Shown here in pieces: positions 1 through 7,570 of a stretch of 7,570 bases of DNA. The translations under genes and the position numbers were made by a program. The DNA is from a virus (taxonomy: Duplodnaviria > Heunggongvirae > Uroviricota > Caudoviricetes). The notes under the pieces are model-generated. The model was not told the DNA's origin and ran no database searches. It was given only the letters and a program-made list of their open reading frames with translations. Numbering within the stretch: position 1 is the first letter of the stretch; each line of letters opens with the position of its first letter. Where the stretch lies: IMG/VR virus record IMGVR_UViG_2585427790_000004, positions 1 through 7,570 of that record. One strand, 5' to 3'.

Positions 1-93
1 GCACTGGCGCTCGGGCGTCGTGCGATTGGCGTTGAACTGGAGACCGGACGTTTTGAGCAGACAGTCAGGGAAGTTCAGGATTTAATCGTTTGA
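1..93 (+). CDS. 3' end of an ORF entering from upstream (5' partial); C-terminus resembles a beta-class DNA N6-adenine/N4-cytosine methyltransferase
   Basis: Frame 1 is open from position 1 to TGA at 91-93 and translates to ALALGRRAIGVELETGRFEQTVREVQDLIV*. The A-x-x-G-R-R-x-I-G-x-E pattern resembles the segment after the FxGxG AdoMet motif near the C-terminus of beta-class methyltransferases. Only 30 residues are visible, so the family call is tentative. Confidence 0.4.
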   Translation, partial: ALALGRRAIGVELETGRFEQTVREVQDLIV

Positions 94-104
94 AACGGAT
101 GATA

Positions 105-133
105 TTGAAGAATTAATTACGCGTCGTTATTAT
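105..133 (+). promoter_or_regulatory. sigma70-like promoter for the tRNA cluster
   Basis: TTGAAG at 105-110, a 17-bp spacer, then TATTAT at 128-133; the first tRNA begins at 143, about 9 nt downstream. Confidence 0.5.
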
Positions 134-142
134 GCGGCTCCC

Positions 143-218
143 GGCCCTTTAGCTCAGTGGTGAGAGCGAGCGACTCATAATCGCCAGGTCGCTGGTTCAA
201 ATCCAGCAAGGGCCACCA
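143..218 (+). tRNA. ileZ: tRNA with CAU anticodon, most likely tRNA-Ile2 (lysidine type) rather than tRNA-Met
   Basis: Cloverleaf read by hand: acceptor GGCCCTT (143-149) pairs with AAGGGCC (208-214), discriminator A, encoded CCA at 216-218; D stem GCTC/GAGC; anticodon loop CTCATAA; T loop TTCAAAT. Closely resembles E. coli ileX as I recall it. The symbol follows the 933W naming from memory. Confidence 0.85.
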
Positions 219-225
219 TCACATA

Positions 226-302
226 CCGCCATTAGCTCATCAGGATAGAGCGCCAGCCTTCGAAGCTGGTTGCGCGGGGTTCGAGTCCTCGATGGCGGTC
301 CA
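226..302 (+). tRNA. argN: tRNA-Arg (anticodon UCG, reads CGA/CGG)
   Basis: Acceptor CCGCCAT (226-232) pairs with ATGGCGG (292-298), discriminator T, encoded CCA at 300-302; D stem GCTC/GAGC; anticodon stem CCAGC/GCTGG with loop CTTCGAA (anticodon TCG at 260-262); T loop TTCGAGT. Unusual C1:G72 first pair. Starts 7 nt after the previous tRNA. Confidence 0.8.
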
Positions 303-315
303 TTATCTGTACCCT

Positions 316-392
316 GCGTTGTTAGCTCAGCCGGACAGAGCAATTGCCTTCTAAGCAATCGGTCACTGGTTCGAATCCAGTACAACGCGCCA
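316..392 (+). tRNA. argO: tRNA-Arg (anticodon UCU, reads AGA/AGG)
   Basis: Acceptor GCGTTGT (316-322) pairs with ACAACGC (382-388), discriminator G, CCA at 390-392; anticodon stem ATTGC/GCAAT with loop CTTCTAA (anticodon TCT at 350-352); T loop TTCGAAT. Resembles E. coli argU. Confidence 0.88.
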
Positions 393-406
393 CACTTATT
401 TTCCCT

Positions 407-432
407 GGCTCGCTTTTGCGGGCCTTTTTTTT
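407..432 (+). terminator. rho-independent terminator after the tRNA cluster
   Basis: Stem GGCTCGC (407-413) / GCGGGCC (418-424) with one G-U pair, loop TTTT, followed by a run of 8 T (425-432). Confidence 0.7.
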
Positions 433-627
433 AAATGTCTCACAATTCAGACGGTTGACTGTTGTCTGGTTGGCGGGGAGTTTGTTAAAAGAAACTGGCA
501 TGGTGAATCCCCCTGTGCGGAGGGGCAATCAGCGAGTAGGTATATGGGATAATCGCGGATTCAGGTGCTGGTACTGAATTCACCGGGAGGCACCCGGCAC
601 CATGCAATGGCACATAGCGCCACTCTC

Positions 628-662
628 CAGCCCCTCTCCGGAGGGGCTGTTTATATTGATTT
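628..662 (+). terminator. rho-independent terminator-like hairpin
   Basis: Perfect 9-bp stem CAGCCCCTC (628-636) / GAGGGGCTG (641-649), loop TCCG, followed by the T-rich tract TTTATATTGATTTT. It lies just before the convergent end of the minus-strand ORF at 684. Confidence 0.5.
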
Positions 663-683
663 TGTCAGATGTGAGTAAACTGC

Positions 684-1019
684 TTATGGACTTTGTTGTT
701 TTAGCCCATAAGGACATATTTGCAGAGTGCAACGGTTATTAAAGCATTCATTCAATACGTTATCTGTATTTGTAGGGCATTCCTGGCTGTTTTTGATTAA
801 ATTCCAGAATGTTTTATTGAATGGTACTACGTTGTAAATGGTTACAGGTAGCACTTTGTTATTGAGCATGATGCCTGTGTGAGTCAGTGTAAATATACTT
901 TCAGGAGGTAAGAAAGCATCCGATTGATACCAGATTATTAATTTTATTTTACTCCATATGACTGAAAAAGATATTCCGCATGATGGCTGGATAACTGTAT
1001 CAATCACAATCCACTTCAT
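684..1019 (-). CDS. hypothetical 111-aa protein in an AT-rich island, no family recognised
   Basis: Open frame of 111 codons in very AT-rich DNA, where stop codons are frequent. Good Shine-Dalgarno AAGGAA 6 nt upstream of the ATG (complement of 1017-1019). A candidate sigma70 promoter lies upstream on the minus strand (TTTACA / TATACT, complement of about 1060-1086). The protein ([22 protein letters not shown]...) matches nothing I know. Confidence 0.4.
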
Positions 1020-1279
1020 TTAGTTTCCTTGTTTATGCCTTGCTGGTGATGTTCTGAAAAGTATAAATGATATTTTTGATTGTAAACCATAGAGCAGAAT
1101 TATTTTTCTGATGTTGTTTATTGTTTATTTAAATGCAGGGTGGTTTATATCTCGTCTTGTAGTTTATCCATGCATATCTGCTTGATGATGAGGTTTTTAT
1201 TTAAGGTATGGTTTTGTGTTTTTTCTGTATTACATGTCAGGTATTTTAAAGAATCATTTTTCAGATGGTGGAAAGAACC

Positions 1280-3136
1280 ATGGCATTTAAACACTATGAT
1301 GTTGTCAGGGCGGCGTCGCCGTCAGATCTTGCGGAAAAGCTGACACATAAACTGAAAGAGGGCTGGCAGCCGTTTGGTAGTCCGGTGGCCATAACCCCTT
1401 ATACCCTGATGCAGGCGATTGCAGCAGAAGGTGATGTGGTGGTCAGTGGTGCAACTGAGCCGGATTGGTACTACGTCATCGTACTGGCCGGGCAGTCCAA
1501 TGCCATGGCTTACGGTGAAGGGCTTCCGCTGCCGGATTCATACGATGCGCCCCATCCGCGCATTAAGCAACTGGCCCGTCGTAACACAGTGACTCCCGGT
1601 GGTGAAGTATGCGTATTTAACGACATCATTCCTGCTGACCATTGTCTGCATGATGTTCAGGATATGAGTACGATTAACCATCCCCGGGCTGACCTGAGCA
1701 AAGGGCAGTACGGCTGTGTCGGACAGGGCTTACATATTGCCAAAAAACTGCTTCCGTATATCCCGAATAACGCGGGGATCCTGCTGGTACCATGCTGTCG
1801 TGGTGGTTCGGCATTCACCCAGGGCGCGGAGGGGACATTCAGTGCGGACACGGGGGCCAGCCAGGATTCGGCACGCTGGGGTGTGGGTAAACCGTTATAT
1901 CAGGACCTGATCGCACGCACCAAAGCGGCATTACAGAAGAACCCGAAAAATGTGTTGCTGGCGGTGTGCTGGATGCAGGGCGAATTTGACATGAGCGCTG
2001 CCACCTACGCACAGCAACCGGACCTGTTCACGGCCATGCTGAAGCAGTTCCGTACTGACCTTTCCGGATTTAACGCGCAGTGCCATGGCGGCAGTGCTGC
2101 AGTTGTACCGTGGATTTGTGGCGACACGACGTATTACTGGAAAAACACATACGGCACACAGTATGACTCCGTCTACGGCGCGTACAAAAACAGGGAGAGC
2201 GACAACGTTTTCTTTGTGCCGTTCATGACCGACGGTAACGGCAACAACACGCCCACCAACTTACCGGCAGAAGACCCGGATATTGCTGATGCAGGTTATT
2301 ACGGCGCGCAATCCCGTAGTAATGGTAATTGGGTATCGTCAAATCGTCCGACACATTTCAGTTCATGGGCGCGCAGGGGCATTATTTCGGATCGCCTGGC
2401 AACCGCTATTCTGAACGCAGTTGGTCGAACCAGCGCCTTCATCAGCGGTACCGCACCGGAGATTAAACCCTCGCCCGGCGGCGACACGCCATCGGGGCCG
2501 TCTGATGGTGACACATCCGTTCGTACAGTCTCCCTGCTGCCGACAGCCGGAGAGGCTGCTGCGCAGGGCTGGACCATCACCGGCGGCAGTGTTGCGCTGG
2601 AAGATGGTGTGTTTAAGGTTACCAAGCAGAGCAATAAAACCTGGTCCCTGATGCATCCGGTGGATGACGCAGTCTCCCTGCTGACACGGGGTGGCAGACT
2701 GAGCTGTAAGTTTCGACTGTCAGGCGCACTGATCAACAACCAGTTCGGTCTGGGAATTTATCTGTATACCGATGTAGCGTTACCTGACGTCGTGGCGATG
2801 ACCGGGACTGGTAACCCGTTCCTGATGTCGTTCTTCACCCAGACCACAGACGGCAAACTGAATCTGATGCATCACAGGAAAGCAGGAAACACAAAGTTGG
2901 GCGAGTTCGGGAATTACAGTAACGACTGGCAGACGCTGGAGCTGGTGTTCACCGCCGGCAGTGCCACGGTTACTCCGAAACTGAATGGAGTGGCTGGCCC
3001 GGCATTCCAGGTCATAAAAGACAGTCTGACACTGGGGCTGAATGCGCTGACGCTGACGGATATTACCAAAAATGCAGCGTATGGCGTTGAGATAGAAAGT
3101 CTGGTGCTGGAGATAAATGCACCGGCATCATCATAA
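1280..3136 (+). CDS. nanS-p: prophage sialate 9-O-acetylesterase (NanS-p-like, SASA/DUF303 family)
   Basis: Long ORF (1265..3136 in the ORF track). Contains the GQSN block (VIVLAGQSNAMAYGEG) typical of SGNH-type sialate O-acetylesterases, and sits between the tRNAs and the holin as nanS-p does in Stx phages. Start placed at ATG 1280 (MAFKHYDVV...) because GGTGGAAAG precedes it; the in-frame ATG at 1265 has no Shine-Dalgarno. Confidence 0.85.
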   Translation: MAFKHYDVVRAASPSDLAEKLTHKLKEGWQPFGSPVAITPYTLMQAIAAEGDVVVSGATEPDWYYVIVLAGQSNAMAYGEGLPLPDSYDAPHPRIKQLARRNTVTPGGEVCVFNDIIPADHCLHDVQDMSTINHPRADLSKGQYGCVGQGLHIAKKLLPYIPNNAGILLVPCCRGGSAFTQGAEGTFSADTGASQDSARWGVGKPLYQDLIARTKAALQKNPKNVLLAVCWMQGEFDMSAATYAQQPDLFTAMLKQFRTDLSGFNAQCHGGSAAVVPWICGDTTYYWKNTYGTQYDSVYGAYKNRESDNVFFVPFMTDGNGNNTPTNLPAEDPDIADAGYYGAQSRSNGNWVSSNRPTHFSSWARRGIISDRLATAILNAVGRTSAFISGTAPEIKPSPGGDTPSGPSDGDTSVRTVSLLPTAGEAAAQGWTITGGSVALEDGVFKVTKQSNKTWSLMHPVDDAVSLLTRGGRLSCKFRLSGALINNQFGLGIYLYTDVALPDVVAMTGTGNPFLMSFFTQTTDGKLNLMHHRKAGNTKLGEFGNYSNDWQTLELVFTAGSATVTPKLNGVAGPAFQVIKDSLTLGLNALTLTDITKNAAYGVEIESLVLEINAPASS

Positions 3137-3220
3137 AAAGTGAGCCAGTCAAATGGAAGGTATCGTTAAACTCACCGGTAGTGTCAGTGGGTCGTCTGAG
3201 ATGCCTGCATGAGTTATCAG

Positions 3221-3252
3221 AGCCATCAGTACTTAACTGGTGGCTTTTTTTA
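3221..3252 (+). terminator. rho-independent terminator between nanS-p and the holin
   Basis: Stem AGCCATCAG (3221-3229) / CTGGTGGCT (3237-3245) with one G-U pair, loop TACTTAA, followed by six T and TAT. Confidence 0.6.
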
Positions 3253-3286
3253 TTGTTGTCAGCTTCCGGATAACGGGAGACGGGGT

Positions 3287-3502
3287 ATGTACCAGATGGA
3301 AAAAATCACAACAGGTGTGTCATACACCACGTCAGCGGTGGGAACGGGCTACTGGTTCCTGCAGTTGCTGGACAGGGTTTCCCCGTCTCAGTGGGCGGCA
3401 ATAGGCGTGCTGGGGAGTCTGCTGTTTGGGTTGCTGACATATCTGACTAACCTGTATTTCAAAATCAGAGAGGACCGTCGTAAGGCGGCGCGGGGAGAGT
3501 AA
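3287..3502 (+). CDS. S: class II holin (phage 21 S-like, 71 aa)
   Basis: [71 protein letters not shown]: two transmembrane segments and a charged C-terminus, near-identical in layout to the S21 holin as recalled. GGGAGA Shine-Dalgarno 6 nt upstream. Met1 and Met4 give a dual-start motif. The track ORF from 3209 is an unsupported N-terminal extension. Confidence 0.85.
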
Positions 3503-3506
3503 AGCG

Positions 3507-3851
3507 ATGAAGAAAAAATACGAACTGGTTGTTAAAGGGATAAATAATTACCCGAATAAGATTACTGTTACTGTGGCACTGGAAATTGGTGGGTATCCGT
3601 CACTGTTGTTGCCAGATGTGGCGATTAGTCTTGACCGTACTGAAGATGCCACGCTGGAGTTTTACGAAGCTGAGGCGAAAAAGCAGGCGAAGCAGTTTTT
3701 CATGGATGTTGCTGCCGGGTTATGTGAAGGGGATGGTCCGTTGCCGGAAAAGCGCCCCGTAATTTTAGAGGCGCAGGATGTGTTGATAACCTACAGAGGA
3801 AAACTACCGGGAATAATTACTGGTTCTCTGAAGACTCCACCGCTGGCCTGA
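3507..3851 (+). CDS. 114-aa protein of unknown function, probably DUF1327 (YdfR-like)
   Basis: Begins 5 nt after the holin stop and lies between holin and endolysin, the position of ydfR in the Qin prophage as I recall. The family assignment is from memory of similar proteins, not a search. Confidence 0.65.
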   Translation: MKKKYELVVKGINNYPNKITVTVALEIGGYPSLLLPDVAISLDRTEDATLEFYEAEAKKQAKQFFMDVAAGLCEGDGPLPEKRPVILEAQDVLITYRGKLPGIITGSLKTPPLA

Positions 3852-3901
3852 AGACTTAACATATCCAGGGATTTGAAATCGATAAACCCTGATAAATATC
3901 C

Positions 3902-4435
3902 ATGAACACCAAAATCAAATACGGCCTGTCGGCTGCCGTTCTGGCGCTGATTGCCGCAGGTGCGCCTGCGCCTGAAATCCTCGACCAGTTTCTGGATGAA
4001 AAGGAAGGTAACCACACCACGGCATACCGTGATGGCGCGGGTATCTGGACCATCTGCCGCGGTGCCATCCTGGTGGATGGCAAACCTGTCGTTCCGGGCA
4101 TGAAGTTGTCGAAGGAAAAATGCGACCGGGTTAACGCCATTGAGCGTGATAAGGCGCTGGCATGGGTGGAGAAAAACATCAGAGTGCCATTGAGTGAACC
4201 CCAGAAAGCGGGGATCGCGTCATTCTGTCCGTACAACATTGGCCCCGGTAAGTGTTTTCCGTCGACGTTTTATAAACGAATTAATGCAGGTGATCGCAGG
4301 GGAGCGTGTGAGGCGATTCGCTGGTGGATTAAGGACGGTGGCAGAGACTGCCGTATTCGCTCAAATAACTGTTACGGTCAGGTATCCCGTCGTGACCAGG
4401 AGAGCGCGCTGGCGTGCTGGGGAATCGACAGATAA
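3902..4435 (+). CDS. R: SAR endolysin (phage lysozyme, GH24 / T4-lysozyme fold)
   Basis: N-terminal Gly/Ala-rich weakly hydrophobic segment (MNTKIKYGLSAAVLALIAAGA) typical of signal-anchor-release endolysins, followed by the catalytic E-x8-D-x5-T spacing (EGNHTTAYRDGAGIWT). 177 aa. Confidence 0.9.
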   Translation: MNTKIKYGLSAAVLALIAAGAPAPEILDQFLDEKEGNHTTAYRDGAGIWTICRGAILVDGKPVVPGMKLSKEKCDRVNAIERDKALAWVEKNIRVPLSEPQKAGIASFCPYNIGPGKCFPSTFYKRINAGDRRGACEAIRWWIKDGGRDCRIRSNNCYGQVSRRDQESALACWGIDR

Positions 4436-4525
4436 GCAGAATATTTTGCTAATCAATGACGTTGGCCAAGGCGGACGGATAACACGAAATCCTGCGAACT
4501 GGCAAAATGTAAGTGAATAAAAGTA

Positions 4526-4558
4526 AAAACCCCGTTTGTTGGCTGCAAGCGGGGTTTT
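4526..4558. terminator. bidirectional terminator-like hairpin in the R-Rz gap
   Basis: 9-bp stem AAAACCCCG (4526-4534) / CGGGGTTTT (4550-4558) around a 15-nt loop; T-rich sequence follows on both strands. The large loop makes strength uncertain. Confidence 0.35.
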
Positions 4559-4633
4559 GTGTTTCCTGACTCTGGAAAAGTCAAAGGAGAAAGTGTGTTT
4601 GATTTTAGCAAACTGATTCGGGAGATTCGAGTG

Positions 4634-4732
4634 ATGGCTGGAAAATTATCCACCTGGAAGTTCATTCTTATCTGGCTGGTGTTTGTGATTATGGCCTCCG
4701 GTTATTTCATCGGTCAGATACGCTGGTGGTGA
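4634..4732 (+). CDS. possible 32-aa single-pass membrane peptide (alternative GTG start at 4595 gives 45 aa)
   Basis: Not in the ORF track because it is too short. ATG 4634 to TGA 4730-4732 encodes MAGKLSTWKFILIWLVFVIMASGYFIGQIRWW with a hydrophobic core. GGGAGA lies 8 nt upstream of the ATG, and AGGAG lies 5 nt upstream of the GTG at 4595. Its stop is 1 nt from the Rz start (TGAAATG). Confidence 0.35.
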   Translation: MAGKLSTWKFILIWLVFVIMASGYFIGQIRWW

Positions 4733-4733
4733 A

Positions 4734-5201
4734 ATGAACCGCGTACTGTGCGTGGTCATCATTGCCCTGCTGGTGGCCTGTGGTGCGCTTAGTCTGGGGC
4801 TGAATCATTACCGTGATAACGCCATAACCTACAAAGAGCAGCGCGATAAAAAAGTCAGTGAGCTGGAGCAGGCAAATGCAACCATTACTGATATGCAGCA
4901 GCGCCAGCGTGATGTTGCTGCACTTGATGCCAGATACTCGAGGGAATTAGCCGATGCGAGAGCTGAAAATGAAACTCTGCGCGCTGACGTTGCCGCTGGT
5001 CGTAAGCGCCTGCGGATCAACGCCACCTGCCCCGGTACCGTGCGTGAAGCCCCCACCACCTCCGGCGTGGATAATGCAACCGGCCCCCGACTGGCAGACA
5101 CCGCTGAACGGGATTATTTCACTCTCAGAGAGCGGTTGATGCTGACGCAGAAGCAGCTGGAAGTGGCGCAGGAATATATCCGCACTCAGTGCCTGAAATA
5201 A
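4734..5201 (+). CDS. Rz: Rz inner-membrane spanin (i-spanin)
   Basis: N-terminal transmembrane segment (MNRVLCVVIIALLVACGALSL) followed by a charged, coiled-coil-like periplasmic domain; position after the endolysin; 155 aa. Confidence 0.9.
   Translation: MNRVLCVVIIALLVACGALSLGLNHYRDNAITYKEQRDKKVSELEQANATITDMQQRQRDVAALDARYSRELADARAENETLRADVAAGRKRLRINATCPGTVREAPTTSGVDNATGPRLADTAERDYFTLRERLMLTQKQLEVAQEYIRTQCLK
4954..5139 (+). CDS. Rz1: Rz1 outer-membrane lipoprotein spanin (o-spanin), embedded in Rz in the +1 frame
   Basis: MRELKMKLCALTLPLVVSACGST...: lipobox LVVSAC and a proline-rich mature region (CVKPPPPPAWIMQPAPDWQTPLNGII) very like lambda Rz1 as recalled; wholly inside Rz. Confidence 0.85.
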   Translation: MRELKMKLCALTLPLVVSACGSTPPAPVPCVKPPPPPAWIMQPAPDWQTPLNGIISLSESG

Positions 5202-5229
5202 GTTTTGCTGATGCGCGGTATTGTCGCCG

Positions 5230-5294
5230 TATCCCCGCATTAACAGAGACCGCAGCCCGACCGGGAGACTCCTCTGCGCGAGTGTGCGGGGATA
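5230..5294. repeat. long imperfect palindrome at the Rz / tail-fibre junction
   Basis: TATCCCCGCA (5230-5239) is the exact reverse complement of TGCGGGGATA (5285-5294); inside are nested pairs CAGAG/CTCTG and CCCG/CGGG. No T-run follows. Confidence 0.5.
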
Positions 5295-5295
5295 A

Positions 5296-6742
5296 TCAAA
5301 AACGATACACACCGGGGTTTCTGCAGCAAAAACCTCTGAAACAAATGCAAAGACTTCAGCAGATAATGCTGCTTCCTCTAAGGCGGCAGCCGCATCGTCA
5401 GCCAGTTCAGCGGCGTCATCGGCATCATCTGCGTCTGCTTCAAAAGATGAGGCGACCAGACAAGCGTCAGCAGCGAAAGGTAGTGCCACGACAGCAACAA
5501 TGAAAGCATCAGAGGCAGCTGGTAGTGTGACGGCGGCAGCTCAGAGCAAAAGTACGGCGGAATCCGCGGCAACGCGCGCCGAGACAGCAGCAAAACGGGC
5601 AGAGGATATTGCATCCGCCGTGGCGCTGGAGGATGCGAGCACGACGAAAAAGGGGATAGTACAGCTCAGCAGTGCGACCAACAGCACTTCCGAGTCACTG
5701 GCGGCAACGCCAAAAGCGGTTAAGGCGGTAATGGGTGAAACGAACAAGAAAGCGCCCTTAAATAGTCCTGCACTGACCGGAACGCCAACAACACCAACTG
5801 CGCGACAGGGAACGAATAATACCCAAATCGCAAGCACGGCTTATGTTATGGCTGCGATCGCTGCCCTCGTGGACTCGTCGCCTGACGCACTGAATACGCT
5901 GAACGAGCTGGCTGCGGCGTTGGGCAACGACCCGAATTTTGCGACCACCATGACTAACGCGCTTGCGGGTAAGCAACCGAAAGATGCCACCCTGACGGCG
6001 CTGGCCGGGCTTGCTACTGCGGCAGACAGGTTTCCGTATTTTACGGGGAATGATGTTGCCAGTCTGGCAACCCTGACAAAAGTTGGGCGGGATATTCTTG
6101 CGAAATCGACCGTTGCCGCCGTTATCGAATACCTCGGTTTACGAGAACTCGGCACAAGCGGGGAGAAAATACCGTTACTCAGTACAGCGAATACCTGGAC
6201 TAATCGACAAACATTCAGCGGTGGCCTTTCTGGTGAACTATCCGGCAATGCTTCTACAGCTGCAAAATTAAAAACTGCCAGGAAAATAAGCAATGTGGCT
6301 TTTGATGGTTCCTCCGATATCACATTAAAAGCAAGTCATGTTGGTGCGTTTGCCTTAGGGAAAACAGGAAGCACCGTTGCGAATGATAAAGCAGTTGGAT
6401 GGAACTGGAGTAGCGGAGCCTATAACGCAACTATTAGTGGTGCATCAACGTTAATTATTCATTTTTATATGGGAGAAGGAAGTTGTCCTGCAGTTCAGTT
6501 TCGGATTAATTATAAAAATGGCGGTATTTTTTATCGTTCAGCCCGTGATGGTTATGGTTTTGAAGCCGACTGGTCCGAATTTTACACCACCACCAGAAAA
6601 CCTTCAGCAGGAGATGTTGGTGCACTGCCGTTATCTGGTGGTCAACTGAATGGTGCACTGGGTATCGGAACATCCAGTGCTCTTGGCGGTAATTCGATTG
6701 TATTGGGTGATAATGACACGGGCTTTAAACAAAATGGCGATG
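5296..6742 (+). pseudogene. side tail fibre (Stf-like) gene fragment, missing its 5' end and cut at its 3' end by the IS
   Basis: The frame of track ORF 5500..6903 is open back to the TAA at 5293-5295 with no start codon before 5500, and already encodes Ala/Ser-rich fibre repeats (ETNAKTSADNAASSKAAAASS...). It continues with GIVQLSSATNSTSESLAATPKAVKAV and ...LGDNDTGFKQNGD, typical of lambdoid Stf and T4 gp37-type fibres. After GD the frame runs into IS sequence at 6743. Confidence 0.8.
6122..6147. other. gix/hix-like DNA-invertase crossover site inside the tail-fibre gene
   Basis: TTATCGAATACC TC GGTTTACGAGAA: two 12-bp inverted half-sites around a 2-bp core; its reverse complement matches the Mu gixL site as I recall it (TTCCTGTAAACCGAGGTTTTGGATAA) at 22 of 26 positions, with the central AAACCGAGGTTT identical. 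Confidence 0.5.
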
Positions 6743-7570
6743 TGAACCGCCCCGGGTTTCCTGGAGAGTGTTTTATCTGTGAACTCAGGCTGCCAGATCA
6801 TCGTTTCCGATGGAAGCATAATAAGCTTTTTCTGCTTCTGCCGGAGGAGTATGGCCCAGCCTTTCCAGCAATCGTCGATTGTTATACCAGTCCACCCACG
6901 TGAGTGTGGCCAGTTCCACTTCTGCACGGTTTTTCCAGCTCTTACGGTGTATTACCTCCGCTTTGTAAAGACCATTGATGCTCTCCGCCATCGCGTTGTC
7001 ATACGAGTCGCCTGTACTTCCTGTTGATGCCAGTAATCCGGCTTCCTTAAGCCGCTGTGTGTAGGCCAGCGATACATACTGAGAACCTTTATCACTGTGA
7101 TGGACCGTGCCGGACGGTCGACGGGCCCATAACGCCTGCTCCAGTGCATCCAGCACGAATGTCGTTTCCATGGACGATGAGACCCGCCACCCCACGATGT
7201 ATCCGGCAAACACATCAATGATGAACGCCACATAGACGAAGCCCCGCCATGTGCTGACGTAAGTAAAATCAGCCACCCACAGCTGGTCAGGTCGTTCTGC
7301 CACGAACTGACGGTTTACGCGGTCGCCTGCGACAACGGCTTTCCGGCTGATGGTCGTACGGACCTTTTTACCCCGGAGAACACCGGCAAGTCCCATAACC
7401 GCCATGAGACGTGCCACAGTGCATCTGGCCACTCTGATACCTTCCCGTAACAACTGACGCCAGACTTTACGCACACCGTATACCTTGTGATTTTCATCGT
7501 ATACGCGCTGTATCTCTTTCTTCAGCCAGTCATCGCGCTGCGCACGGGCACTGCGTTTATCCGGATGATG
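6743..7570 (-). mobile_element. IS3-family insertion sequence (IS629-like), 3' part; continues beyond the window
   Basis: The tail-fibre frame breaks at 6743, where a terminus beginning TGAACCGCCCCGGG starts (IS3-family ends are 5'-TG...CA-3'). The transposase OrfB stop lies about 40 bp inside that end. Confidence 0.8.
6785..7570 (-). CDS. IS3-family transposase OrfB (DDE integrase domain), N-terminus beyond the window
   Basis: Track ORF 6785..7474 plus an open in-frame extension to 7570 (...HHPDKRSARAQRDDWLKKEIQRVYDENHKVYGV RKVWRQLL...). DDE-type blocks are present: LWVADFTY, HHSDKGSQY, YDNAMAESINGLYKAE. Matches IS629/IS1203-type OrfB from memory. Confidence 0.9.
   Translation of the reverse strand, partial: HHPDKRSARAQRDDWLKKEIQRVYDENHKVYGVRKVWRQLLREGIRVARCTVARLMAVMGLAGVLRGKKVRTTISRKAVVAGDRVNRQFVAERPDQLWVADFTYVSTWRGFVYVAFIIDVFAGYIVGWRVSSSMETTFVLDALEQALWARRPSGTVHHSDKGSQYVSLAYTQRLKEAGLLASTGSTGDSYDNAMAESINGLYKAEVIHRKSWKNRAEVELATLTWVDWYNNRRLLERLGHTPPAEAEKAYYASIGNDDLAA

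Follow-up and report, generated by a model that had tools for sequence, protein, structure and literature searches.

STnc100 is among the most often annotated small RNAs (sRNAs) of bacteria. One of its copies overlaps an RNA that goes by two names, EcOnc27, reportedly named in Tree et al. 2014, and sRNA103, which is said to have been named in Gruber and Sperandio 2015. This copy is located 75 nt downstream of stx2B (PMC12711010, PMC7873438). EcOnc27 has been detected by Hfq-CRAC with Northern confirmation, and overexpression of sRNA103 leads to increased levels of fimZ and espA (PMC7873438, PMC12711010 for both). In EDL933, 11 copies of STnc100 are transcribed, one of which, STnc100_4, is positive in Northern blots (PMC5331693). 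Despite the heavy annotation, a review lists the function of STnc100 as unknown, and no seed has been defined for it (PMC9029176).

Another RNA that has been linked to this family is PasD, of which two copies, PasD1 and PasD2, come from EPEC E2348/69 (Pearl Mizrahi et al. 2021). Hfq-dependent stability, targets identified by RIL-seq and a Northern signal have been reported for PasD (PMC8550237). According to a 2026 preprint by Zhu, Shabalina and Storz, PasD is structurally homologous to STnc100 as judged by cmscan; BLAST cannot link the two, and their seeds differ. Both Q and LpxR are located within 10 kb of PasD in >98% of the PasD loci.

Here, we examine a stretch of 7,570 nt, referred to below as the window, which corresponds to positions 1 to 7,570 of the Caudoviricetes record IMGVR_UViG_2585427790_000004. 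A preliminary description of this DNA had pointed to a hairpin-rich segment at about 500-662 and suggested that it could be a small RNA, a readthrough-controlled leader or the remnant of a repeat element.

An STnc100 gene in the window

A scan with the Rfam covariance models matched the STnc100 family (RF02076) to positions 469-658 on the plus strand with a score of 133.1 bits (E = 6e-30), to be compared with a curated gathering score of 47 bits. The match extends over the full length of the model, from position 1 to position 206 of 206. No other Rfam family, riboswitches and ribozymes included, was matched at E <= 1 in the segment 380-1300 of the window. The qPCR primers published in the study that detected STnc100 in outer-membrane vesicles (PMC12370729) match the window exactly at positions 499-518 and 572-591. 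What had been described as hairpin-rich is a complete STnc100 small-RNA gene, a member of a family that has already been catalogued. Of the three readings offered at the outset, the Rfam match identifies the small RNA as the appropriate one, and relatives of this RNA have been verified by Northern blots and found to be bound by Hfq (PMC5331693, PMC7873438, PMC8550237).

The home of STnc100 is lambda-like prophages. Matches were present in the majority of the complete E. coli genomes (3408 of 5426), at up to 13 places per genome. Most of these E. coli matches are labelled in RefSeq as a minus-strand "hypothetical protein" (pseudo), and here the label takes the form of a partial CDS assigned by PGAP to window positions 488-613. 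We rejected a coding function on either strand, including that of the minus-strand PGAP pseudogene. The length of the element modulo 3 is flat, with 78, 75 and 69 of 222 homologues in the three classes, and no reading frame is therefore preserved on either strand. Likewise, a plus-strand ORF of 25 codons (500-577) gained no support, there being no conserved frame, which agrees with the earlier remark that the segment holds no credible long ORF. The RefSeq pseudogene label is a mislabelling of a catalogued sRNA gene.

Genomic context

Positions 1-5320 of the window are 100% identical to a prophage in an E. coli chromosome. The gene order in this chromosome is Q, PR' and its terminator, a small ORF, a DNA methyltransferase gene, a tRNA promoter followed by three tRNA genes and a terminator, STnc100, an iraM-like gene on the minus strand, nanS-p, the holin gene, the endolysin/lysozyme gene and Rz. 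In the window, the element is immediately preceded by the tRNA cluster (CAT/Ile2, Arg-TCG and Arg-TCT; 143-392, plus strand) and the terminator of the cluster (407-424, plus strand). It is followed by the iraM-like anti-adaptor gene (684-1019, minus strand, as annotated in the 100% identical locus), which is convergent with it. Since this gene is convergent, and since no anti-terminator pairing is conserved, the proposed readthrough-controlled leader is unlikely here. There was also no conserved pairing between a sensor and the terminator, as expected for a riboswitch or attenuator, and no match to a riboswitch family at E <= 1.

The prophage contains its own lambda-like PR' directly after Q, with the promoter elements TTGATT-17-TAAATT and an AACGAT pause motif followed by tR'. 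This module, which occupies positions 2474-2567 of the 100% identical chromosomal locus that we examined, lies 2 kb upstream of the element. Because a separate PR'/tR' is located at this distance, just after Q, the STnc100 unit is not the PR' leader, and we rejected the reading of the element as a PR'-tR' late leader.

The same order is seen in VT2-Sakai, but there stx2AB separates the STnc100 unit from the tRNA terminator. In an alignment with Sakai, the window matches as far as the tRNA terminator and again from about 48 nt after stx2B. The window thus represents the Stx moron region in its stx-less form. The VT2-Sakai copy of STnc100 (EcOnc27/sRNA103; 208 bits) shares the core, the promoter layout and the type of terminator with the copy in the window and, like it, is found between the tRNA cluster and nanS-p. 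The two copies are about 76% identical by BLAST, with differences in the variable insert, the P3 and P4 sequences and the tail (for these features, see below). The Stx2 phages carry stx, whereas the window prophage is devoid of stx genes and its STnc100 unit comes directly after the tRNA terminator. The convergent partner also differs: the iraM-like gene fills the slot in which the Stx2 phages have the convergent sRNA AsxR.

Across the family, the element is intergenic, on the strand of the late operon, and falls in the interval from Q to the lysis genes; in many cases the holin gene is found 400-500 nt downstream of it. The copy in the window conforms to this pattern in being intergenic, within a lambdoid prophage, between Q and the lysis genes, and on the late strand. 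The Q proteins at the family loci belong to two unrelated Pfam families, and several families of holins and endolysins are represented. With the Q, holin and endolysin families all varying, the element is not associated with any one protein family at these loci.

Homologues of the element

Homologues were collected by scanning for the 19-mer CCGGGAGGCACCCGGCACC, located at positions 583-601 of the window. Exact copies of this 19-mer were present in at least 120 IMG/VR contigs and in at least 120 genome contigs, the latter mostly from Enterobacterales and representing many genera. A few genomes with a high GC content contain the 19-mer without the rest of the element, and these look like chance matches. 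The sequences flanking the 19-mer are very divergent, with 114 distinct contexts of 240 nt. As the 19-mer served as the search key, its invariance, and that of the helix P5 within it, is by construction and provides no information about covariation. Pair counts were based on an alignment of 47 diverse STnc100 cores (A1), while a wider set of 222 homologues was used for length modulo 3, terminators and the likeness of the hairpins.

The median length of the predicted RNA is about 169 nt across the family. Some genomes contain tandem arrays with a period of about 255 nt, in which each copy has its own promoter and terminator and the copies combine a common scaffold with different A/U-rich tails. 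In one subclass (class C), the P2 hairpin is GCGGC-UCAGC-GC(A)CGC, and the Rfam model misses this subclass at its threshold. Class C copies are found in the early-left operon, downstream of a gene for a CI-type repressor and upstream of an RdgC-like gene, the likeness to RdgC being judged by eye from the N-terminal sequence. We rejected the reading of these copies as PL-proximal, put-like leaders, in that they are located about 900 nt downstream of a PL-like promoter and have a promoter and a terminator of their own. Two further candidates were dismissed. One was that the 5' domain is the leader of a recurrent downstream ORF; these ORFs are spurious read-throughs of the element, which is followed by a terminator with a long loop. 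The other was a tRNA-like sequence located 3' of some copies of the Klebsiella type, in which ARAGORN finds no tRNA.

Structure of the conserved core

The minimum free energy (MFE) of the segment 498-662 is -69.5 kcal/mol and none of 200 dinucleotide shuffles folded as well (z = -2.98), so that the segment is more structured than expected by chance, as its description as hairpin-rich implied. For the helices P1, P2, P4 and P5 taken together, 89.9% of the cells in the 47 cores of A1 are paired, the corresponding figures being 77.4% for shuffles and 42-47% for slid controls. Double-sided changes numbered 179 in these helices versus 62.5 in the shuffles, a level reached by none of 500 shuffles. 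The first 108 nt or so of the RNA fold into a conserved junction, supported by covariation, which is composed of the helices P1, P2, P2.1, P4 and P5 and a pseudoknot. All features described below are on the plus strand.

P1 is formed by GCAUGGUG at 498-505 and CACCAUGC at 598-605. The pair counts on A1 show compensatory changes in its four outer pairs, and P1 is also recovered by RNAalifold and in the MFE fold. The junction AAU (506-508), which is at least 90% conserved in A1, leads into the P2 hairpin (509-524), consisting of CCCCC (509-513), the loop UGUGC (514-518) and GG(A)GGG (519-524) with A521 bulged. In this bulged register 98.3% of the cells in A1 are paired, with 3 compensatory pairs, versus 82.6% in the register of the Rfam model, and RNAalifold, which was run blind, chose the bulged register unprompted. 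P2 is followed by a helix of 3 bp, P2.1, between GCA (525-527) and CGC (554-556), the latter being part of the conserved CGCGG motif. RNAalifold placed this helix at the alignment pairs 32-118, 33-117 and 34-116, the second and third of which show 6 and 10 double-sided changes, respectively; in the window copy A527-C554 is a mismatch. P2.1 accounts for the conservation of the GC and CGCGG motifs.

The two strands of P2.1 enclose P3a (AUCAGCG, 528-534) and a variable insert (535-553), which is hypervariable in both length and sequence across the family alignments. The P4 hairpin (557-581) pairs GGAUUCAG at 557-564 with CUGAAUUC at 574-581 around a loop at 565-573. Double-sided changes were observed at 8 of its 8 pairs in A1, and the MFE fold recovers it. 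A single junction base, A582, separates P4 from the P5 hairpin (583-597; CCGGG, loop AGGCA, CCCGG), which lies inside the 19-mer used as the search key. In addition to P1 and P2.1, RNAalifold recovers P2 and P5.

The pseudoknot is formed by P3a and P3b (UGCUGGU, 566-572), the latter being inside the loop of P4. Because the MAFFT columns are unreliable for a segment as short as P3b, the P3 pairing was tested with a custom script on individual homologues. A helix of at least 6 bp could be formed in 78 of 95 distinct homologues, with 45 distinct complementary sequence pairs, whereas the corresponding frequencies were 14.9% for shuffled loops and 29% for strands combined across homologues. The consensus structure line for STnc100 in the cmscan output shows no such pseudoknot.

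Junction and loop bases outside the search key (AAU, UNNGC, GC and CGCGG) are conserved, while the helices P1, P2, P4 and P3 vary with compensation. The linkers between the core helices are 0-3 nt long, which implies a tight multi-helix junction. The pseudoknot, P2.1, the corrected register of P2 and the Rfam-negative subclass appear to be absent from the Rfam model and from the papers cited here. These points refine a known family and do not define a new kind of element.

The two stem-loops and the four heptamers named in the preliminary description are all present in the sequence, but several of them are located elsewhere than stated. ATTCACC (578-584) and the second hairpin (628-649) were placed correctly. 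CCCCT-GTGCGG-AGGGG, given as 520-535, is found at 510-525 (the helix P2 being 509-524), TGAATCC at 504-510 instead of 512-518, GGTGAAT at 502-508 instead of 510-516, and GGATTCA at 558-564 instead of 557-563. The alternative folds proposed from these heptamers rest on complementarities that are real in this copy, owing to a chance resemblance of its P4 to the conserved 5' GGUGAAUCC, but the homologues conserve them no better than shuffles. For TGAATCC/GGATTCA, 67.6% was paired in A1 versus 66.5% in the shuffles, with 51 of 500 shuffles as good. The corresponding values for GGTGAAT/ATTCACC were 84.2% and 83.7%, with 58 of 500 shuffles as good. Only the invariant GGUG/CACC part of the latter pairing holds, and 35 of the 47 sequences lack the central A-U pair of this pairing. 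Both pairings compete with P1 and P4, which covary strongly. The check by folding and covariation that had been called for thus bears out P1, P2 and P4 but not the alternative pairings.

The two hairpins had also been described as related. They are alike in this copy, but a CCCC...GGGG motif is present downstream in only 34 of the 222 homologues. One of these CCCC...GGGG hairpins is P2, the other is the terminator, and they differ in function.

Tail, terminator and putative promoter

Transcription probably starts near G498, from the gene's own promoter. A putative sigma-70 promoter is located at 463-491 on the plus strand, with TTGTCT as the -35 element (463-468), a 17-nt spacer ending with TG (483-484), and TAAAAG as the -10 element (486-491). 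A scan for consensus promoters made no call at 463-491, since position 6 of the -10 element is not T. Many of the other classes in the family have a near-consensus TTGACx-17-TAAATT of which the -10 element ends 7-9 nt before GGUG, and the start is therefore expected at the first bases of P1. The layout of the promoter in the VT2-Sakai copy is the same as in the window, and an RpoD ChIP-exo signal has been reported for the STnc100 promoters of Salmonella (PMC10794520). Given a start near 498, the first 29 or so positions of the Rfam model would represent the promoter and not the RNA.

The core is followed by a variable, A/U-rich 3' tail (606-627, plus strand), a candidate region for pairing with targets and for contacts with Hfq, and the tails differ between tandem copies. 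The intrinsic terminator (628-664, plus strand) consists of the hairpin CAGCCCCTC-TCCG-GAGGGGCTG at 628-649, with 9 bp of which 7 are G-C and a UCCG loop, and a U-tract at 650-664. It passes a terminator scan and the hairpin is also seen in the MFE fold. The T-tract that had been noted after the second hairpin is thus present, but it is interrupted (TTTATATTGATTTTG, UUUAUAUU) and poorer than that of typical Hfq-dependent sRNAs. At least 134 of the 222 homologues have a hairpin with a U-run after it within 120 nt. The 3' strand of P2 was also considered as an anti-terminator that would pair with the 5' strand of the terminator, to which it is complementary at 7 of 8 positions in this copy. This candidate was rejected, as the complementarity was no better than in cross-sequence controls, for which the baseline is inflated by G-U pairing to U-tracts.

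Comparison with other phage RNAs

Both PasD of EPEC E2348/69 and the element in the window are encoded by prophages near Q, and their kinship rests on the cmscan result of the preprint. In the 100% identical locus, Q is located 2 kb upstream of the element, and no LpxR is annotated in the 13 kb around it (4.5 kb on the upstream side and 8.7 kb on the downstream side).

The AsxR/AgvB anti-sRNA dyads of EHEC prophages share the genomic slot of the element, with the late promoter on one side and the lysis genes on the other. In VT2-Sakai, AsxR (88 bits) is located tail-to-tail with the STnc100 terminator, whereas neither AsxR nor AgvB, and hence no dyad, was matched at E <= 1 in the segment 380-1300 of the window. 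Within such a dyad STnc100 is the partner encoded on the plus strand, and it is not known to act as a sponge. The lambda 6S RNA and StxS, which binds Hfq (PMC7873438), are likewise short RNAs with a constitutive promoter and an intrinsic terminator located between Q and the lysis genes. These RNAs are PR'-tR' leaders, whereas STnc100 in the window is a separate unit downstream of the PR'/tR' of its own prophage.

The put RNA of HK022 resembles the element in being a phage RNA of several helices close to a promoter, with non-canonical features and the orientation of its operon. Its place is at the early promoters, and its two stem-loops have a total length of about 70 nt. The hallmark of put is that it acts against termination further downstream through binding to the beta-prime zinc-binding domain of RNA polymerase. 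There is no similarity in sequence or to the model between put and the window, and homology was rejected, as neither a match to the model nor the core motif is present in the HK022 genome. IpeX of the DLP12 prophage of E. coli K-12 is also a prophage sRNA from the Q-to-lysis region, and at 167 nt it has the same length as some STnc100 copies. This shared length suggested that the two might be identical, but the DLP12 region of K-12 has no STnc100 match and IpeX is therefore unrelated.

Discussion

Our analysis suggests that positions 463-664 or so of the window hold a complete and autonomous STnc100 gene, the product of which, an RNA of about 165 nt, is quite probably an Hfq-associated sRNA that acts in trans and is made in the lysogen. 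Transcription would begin at about G498 from the sigma-70 promoter of the gene itself. The conserved 5' domain of about 108 nt, locked by the pseudoknot between 528-534 and the loop of P4, could then provide a stable scaffold, followed by the variable and mostly single-stranded tail at 606-627, and the transcript would end at the intrinsic terminator (628-649). By analogy with EcOnc27/sRNA103 and PasD1/2, the RNA would be bound by Hfq through the tail, the terminator and the U-tract in the lysogen. It may act on mRNAs of the host or the prophage, with the variable insert and tail giving the specificity for targets. In the lytic cycle, RNA polymerase that is modified by Q and comes from the late promoter upstream would be expected to read through the unit to nanS-p and the lysis genes, in line with standard lambdoid biology. 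Expression, Hfq binding and the effects on fimZ and espA are taken from the literature on the homologues and may extend to the copy studied here, for which we infer both the behaviour of the RNA and the role of the tail. The interrupted U-tract, the lack of the final consensus T in the -10 element and the pattern of conservation speak against this account.

Invariant junction and loop bases combined with freely covarying helices are more typical of an RNA that binds a protein or a ligand than of a seed-driven sRNA. The main rival explanation, which is favoured by this pattern of conservation, is that the pseudoknotted 5' domain is the functional part and serves as a decoy, sponge or scaffold by binding a host or phage protein or a small ligand, with Hfq-mediated base-pairing being secondary or absent. 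Such a role partly overlaps that of a trans-acting sRNA and the two are not mutually exclusive. It would fit with the exact recurrence of the 19-mer in many genera of Enterobacterales, although this was the search key, and with the 0-3 nt linkers of the tight multi-helix junction. Conserved junction and loop bases next to compensated helices are moreover a pattern typical of selection for three-dimensional shape, and the family, heavily annotated as it is, still has no listed function (PMC9029176). However, no partner is known, no riboswitch or ribozyme family was matched at E <= 1 and no single protein family co-occurs with the element, while the relatives are documented ligands of Hfq with RNA partners. 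We therefore consider it rather unlikely that binding by the 5' domain is the main function. A role in cis, either as a put-like antiterminator RNA or as a leader or attenuator that controls readthrough into the late genes, seems improbable to a much higher degree. The RNA does begin at a promoter and is followed by a terminator, its orientation is always that of the surrounding operon, it maps to the Q-to-lysis interval, with the holin gene often 400-500 nt downstream, and the divergent subclass sits in the early-left operon. Nevertheless, HK022 lacks both an STnc100 match and the core motif, a separate PR' with an AACGAT pause element and tR' is located 2 kb upstream, the downstream gene is convergent, no pairing between the domain and the terminator is conserved, and members of the family accumulate as discrete, terminated RNAs (PMC5331693, PMC8550237).

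It is hardly credible that the segment is non-functional, be it a decayed repeat, a recombination scar or a fragment of a protein gene on the minus strand, as annotated in RefSeq (488-613). The partial CDS called by PGAP and the "hypothetical protein" label on most E. coli matches would agree with such an origin, as would the presence of the element in multiple copies, like a repeat. But no frame is kept on either strand (78/75/69), and compensatory changes maintain five helices. The promoter and the terminator are conserved, and expression of the relatives has been published. The same compensatory changes, conserved signals and published expression exclude the remnant of a repeat element suggested in the preliminary description.

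We tentatively raise the possibility that RNAs of the STnc100 type are modular rather than ordinary seed-driven sRNAs, such that a near-invariant pseudoknotted domain recognises a conserved factor or confers unusual stability, while a diversifying tail might provide the specificity. The pseudoknotted domain goes beyond what the Rfam consensus captures, and it recurs in both the late and the early-left operons of Enterobacterales phages, sometimes in tandem.

The location of STnc100 next to stx2 in the Stx2 phages gives these details a wider interest. Polymorphisms just upstream of STnc100 are among the strongest genomic predictors of HUS, and the HUS-linked changes are located at +90 and +103 after stx2B (PMC12370729, PMC12711010). 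Because the start of transcription is placed near the first base of P1, these changes would fall in the promoter/discriminator region of the sRNA gene and not in the RNA. For the same reason, the published 11-nt complementarity between STnc100 and stxB, which corresponds to model positions 5-15 (PMC12370729, PMC12711010), would lie upstream of the transcript. The concrete hypotheses that the refined model offers for the family are that transcription starts near the first base of P1 and that the RNA combines a pseudoknotted junction of five helices with a variable tail.

A counterpart of the Stx2-phage moron region without stx

Alignment of the window with a stretch of the Stx2 phage VT2-Sakai, L245 (window 393-445 against L245 3064-3160 and 4395-4450), showed that the window sequence up to the tRNA terminator is that found upstream of stx2A, and that the match resumes at window ~441, from about 48 nt past stx2B. 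Since the window matches both flanks of stx2AB, the cassette is placed downstream of the tRNA terminator and upstream of the STnc100 promoter, and the window is the exact counterpart, without stx, of the Stx2-phage moron region.

In the tRNA moron itself (105-424), a predicted promoter, TTGAAG-17-TATTAT at 105-133, precedes three tRNAs, and a strong terminator follows them at 407-424; the CAT tRNA was assigned to Met by ARAGORN versus Ile by PGAP. Converging on the sRNA terminator is an iraM-like anti-adaptor gene on the minus strand (684-1019), whereas in VT2-Sakai the same slot is occupied by AsxR, a convergent sRNA. The stop codon of the iraM-like gene is overlapped by an imperfect inverted repeat, CTTATGGAC...GCCCATAAG (683-711). 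Perfect identity with E. coli EC21Z-078 ends at position 5320, immediately past the Rz/lysis genes, and the best matches to the sequence beyond are other genomes, so that a mosaic recombination boundary seems to lie here.

In the surrounding prophage locus, the late promoter region (L001 2474-2567) lies 2 kb upstream, outside the window, and is very similar to lambda PR': it has a TAAATT -10 element, the sigma-dependent pause motif AACGAT and, ~45 nt further on, a GC-rich terminator. With a terminator at this distance, the product would be a very short leader RNA, like StxS.

Coding annotations over the sRNA

The RefSeq/PGAP annotation places a partial "hypothetical protein" pseudogene over the sRNA (488-613, minus strand), and "hypothetical protein" is also the label on the majority of the ~10,000 E. 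coli matches. The flat distribution of lengths modulo 3 argues that this minus-strand pseudogene call is an annotation artefact. On the plus strand, the E. coli class of the element contains a 25-codon ORF (500-577) that runs from an ATG in helix P1 to a TGA in the 3' strand of helix P4 and is not conserved across the other classes of element. Ribosome footprints have been reported by Ribo-seq for some STnc100 copies (PMC5331693).

Related elements in other contigs

Complete STnc100-type units were arranged in tandem arrays in four contigs (L166, L184, L161 and L022), with three copies 255-268 nt apart in L166 and three copies followed by a tRNA in L022. The copies share the scaffold, the conserved 5' domain, and differ in their tails and in the sequences of P4 and the pseudoknot P3. 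Matches to isrI (RF01392), a Salmonella island sRNA that binds Hfq, were located directly 5' of STnc100-type elements in L029 (8139-8235), L053 (8665-8763) and L011 (5465-5560), all on the minus strand, which suggests another recurrent sRNA pairing in the late-region slot.

Elements of one subclass, whose P2 has the alternative form GCGGC-UCAGC-GC(A)CGC, score under the Rfam threshold for STnc100. The members of this subclass (L003 3519, L006 3393, L014 4460 and L073 1060 on the minus strand, L020 10271 on the plus strand, and L122) sit in the early-left operon: a CI-type repressor lies upstream of them, and the gene on their downstream side looks, by eye, RdgC-like.

Published stx2-linked positions

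An 11-nt complementarity to stxB has been proposed in a study of OMVs (PMC12370729). The segment corresponds to positions 5-15 of the Rfam model (L245 4473-4483) and may be absent from the RNA, because it lies upstream of the inferred transcription start. The top reported predictors of HUS, +90 T/C and a +103 T deletion counted after stx2B (PMC12711010), map to L245 ~4484-4498, equivalent to window ~484-498. To within ~2 nt, these sites would fall in the inferred extended -10 and the -10-to-start spacer of the STnc100/EcOnc27 gene, outside the folded RNA.
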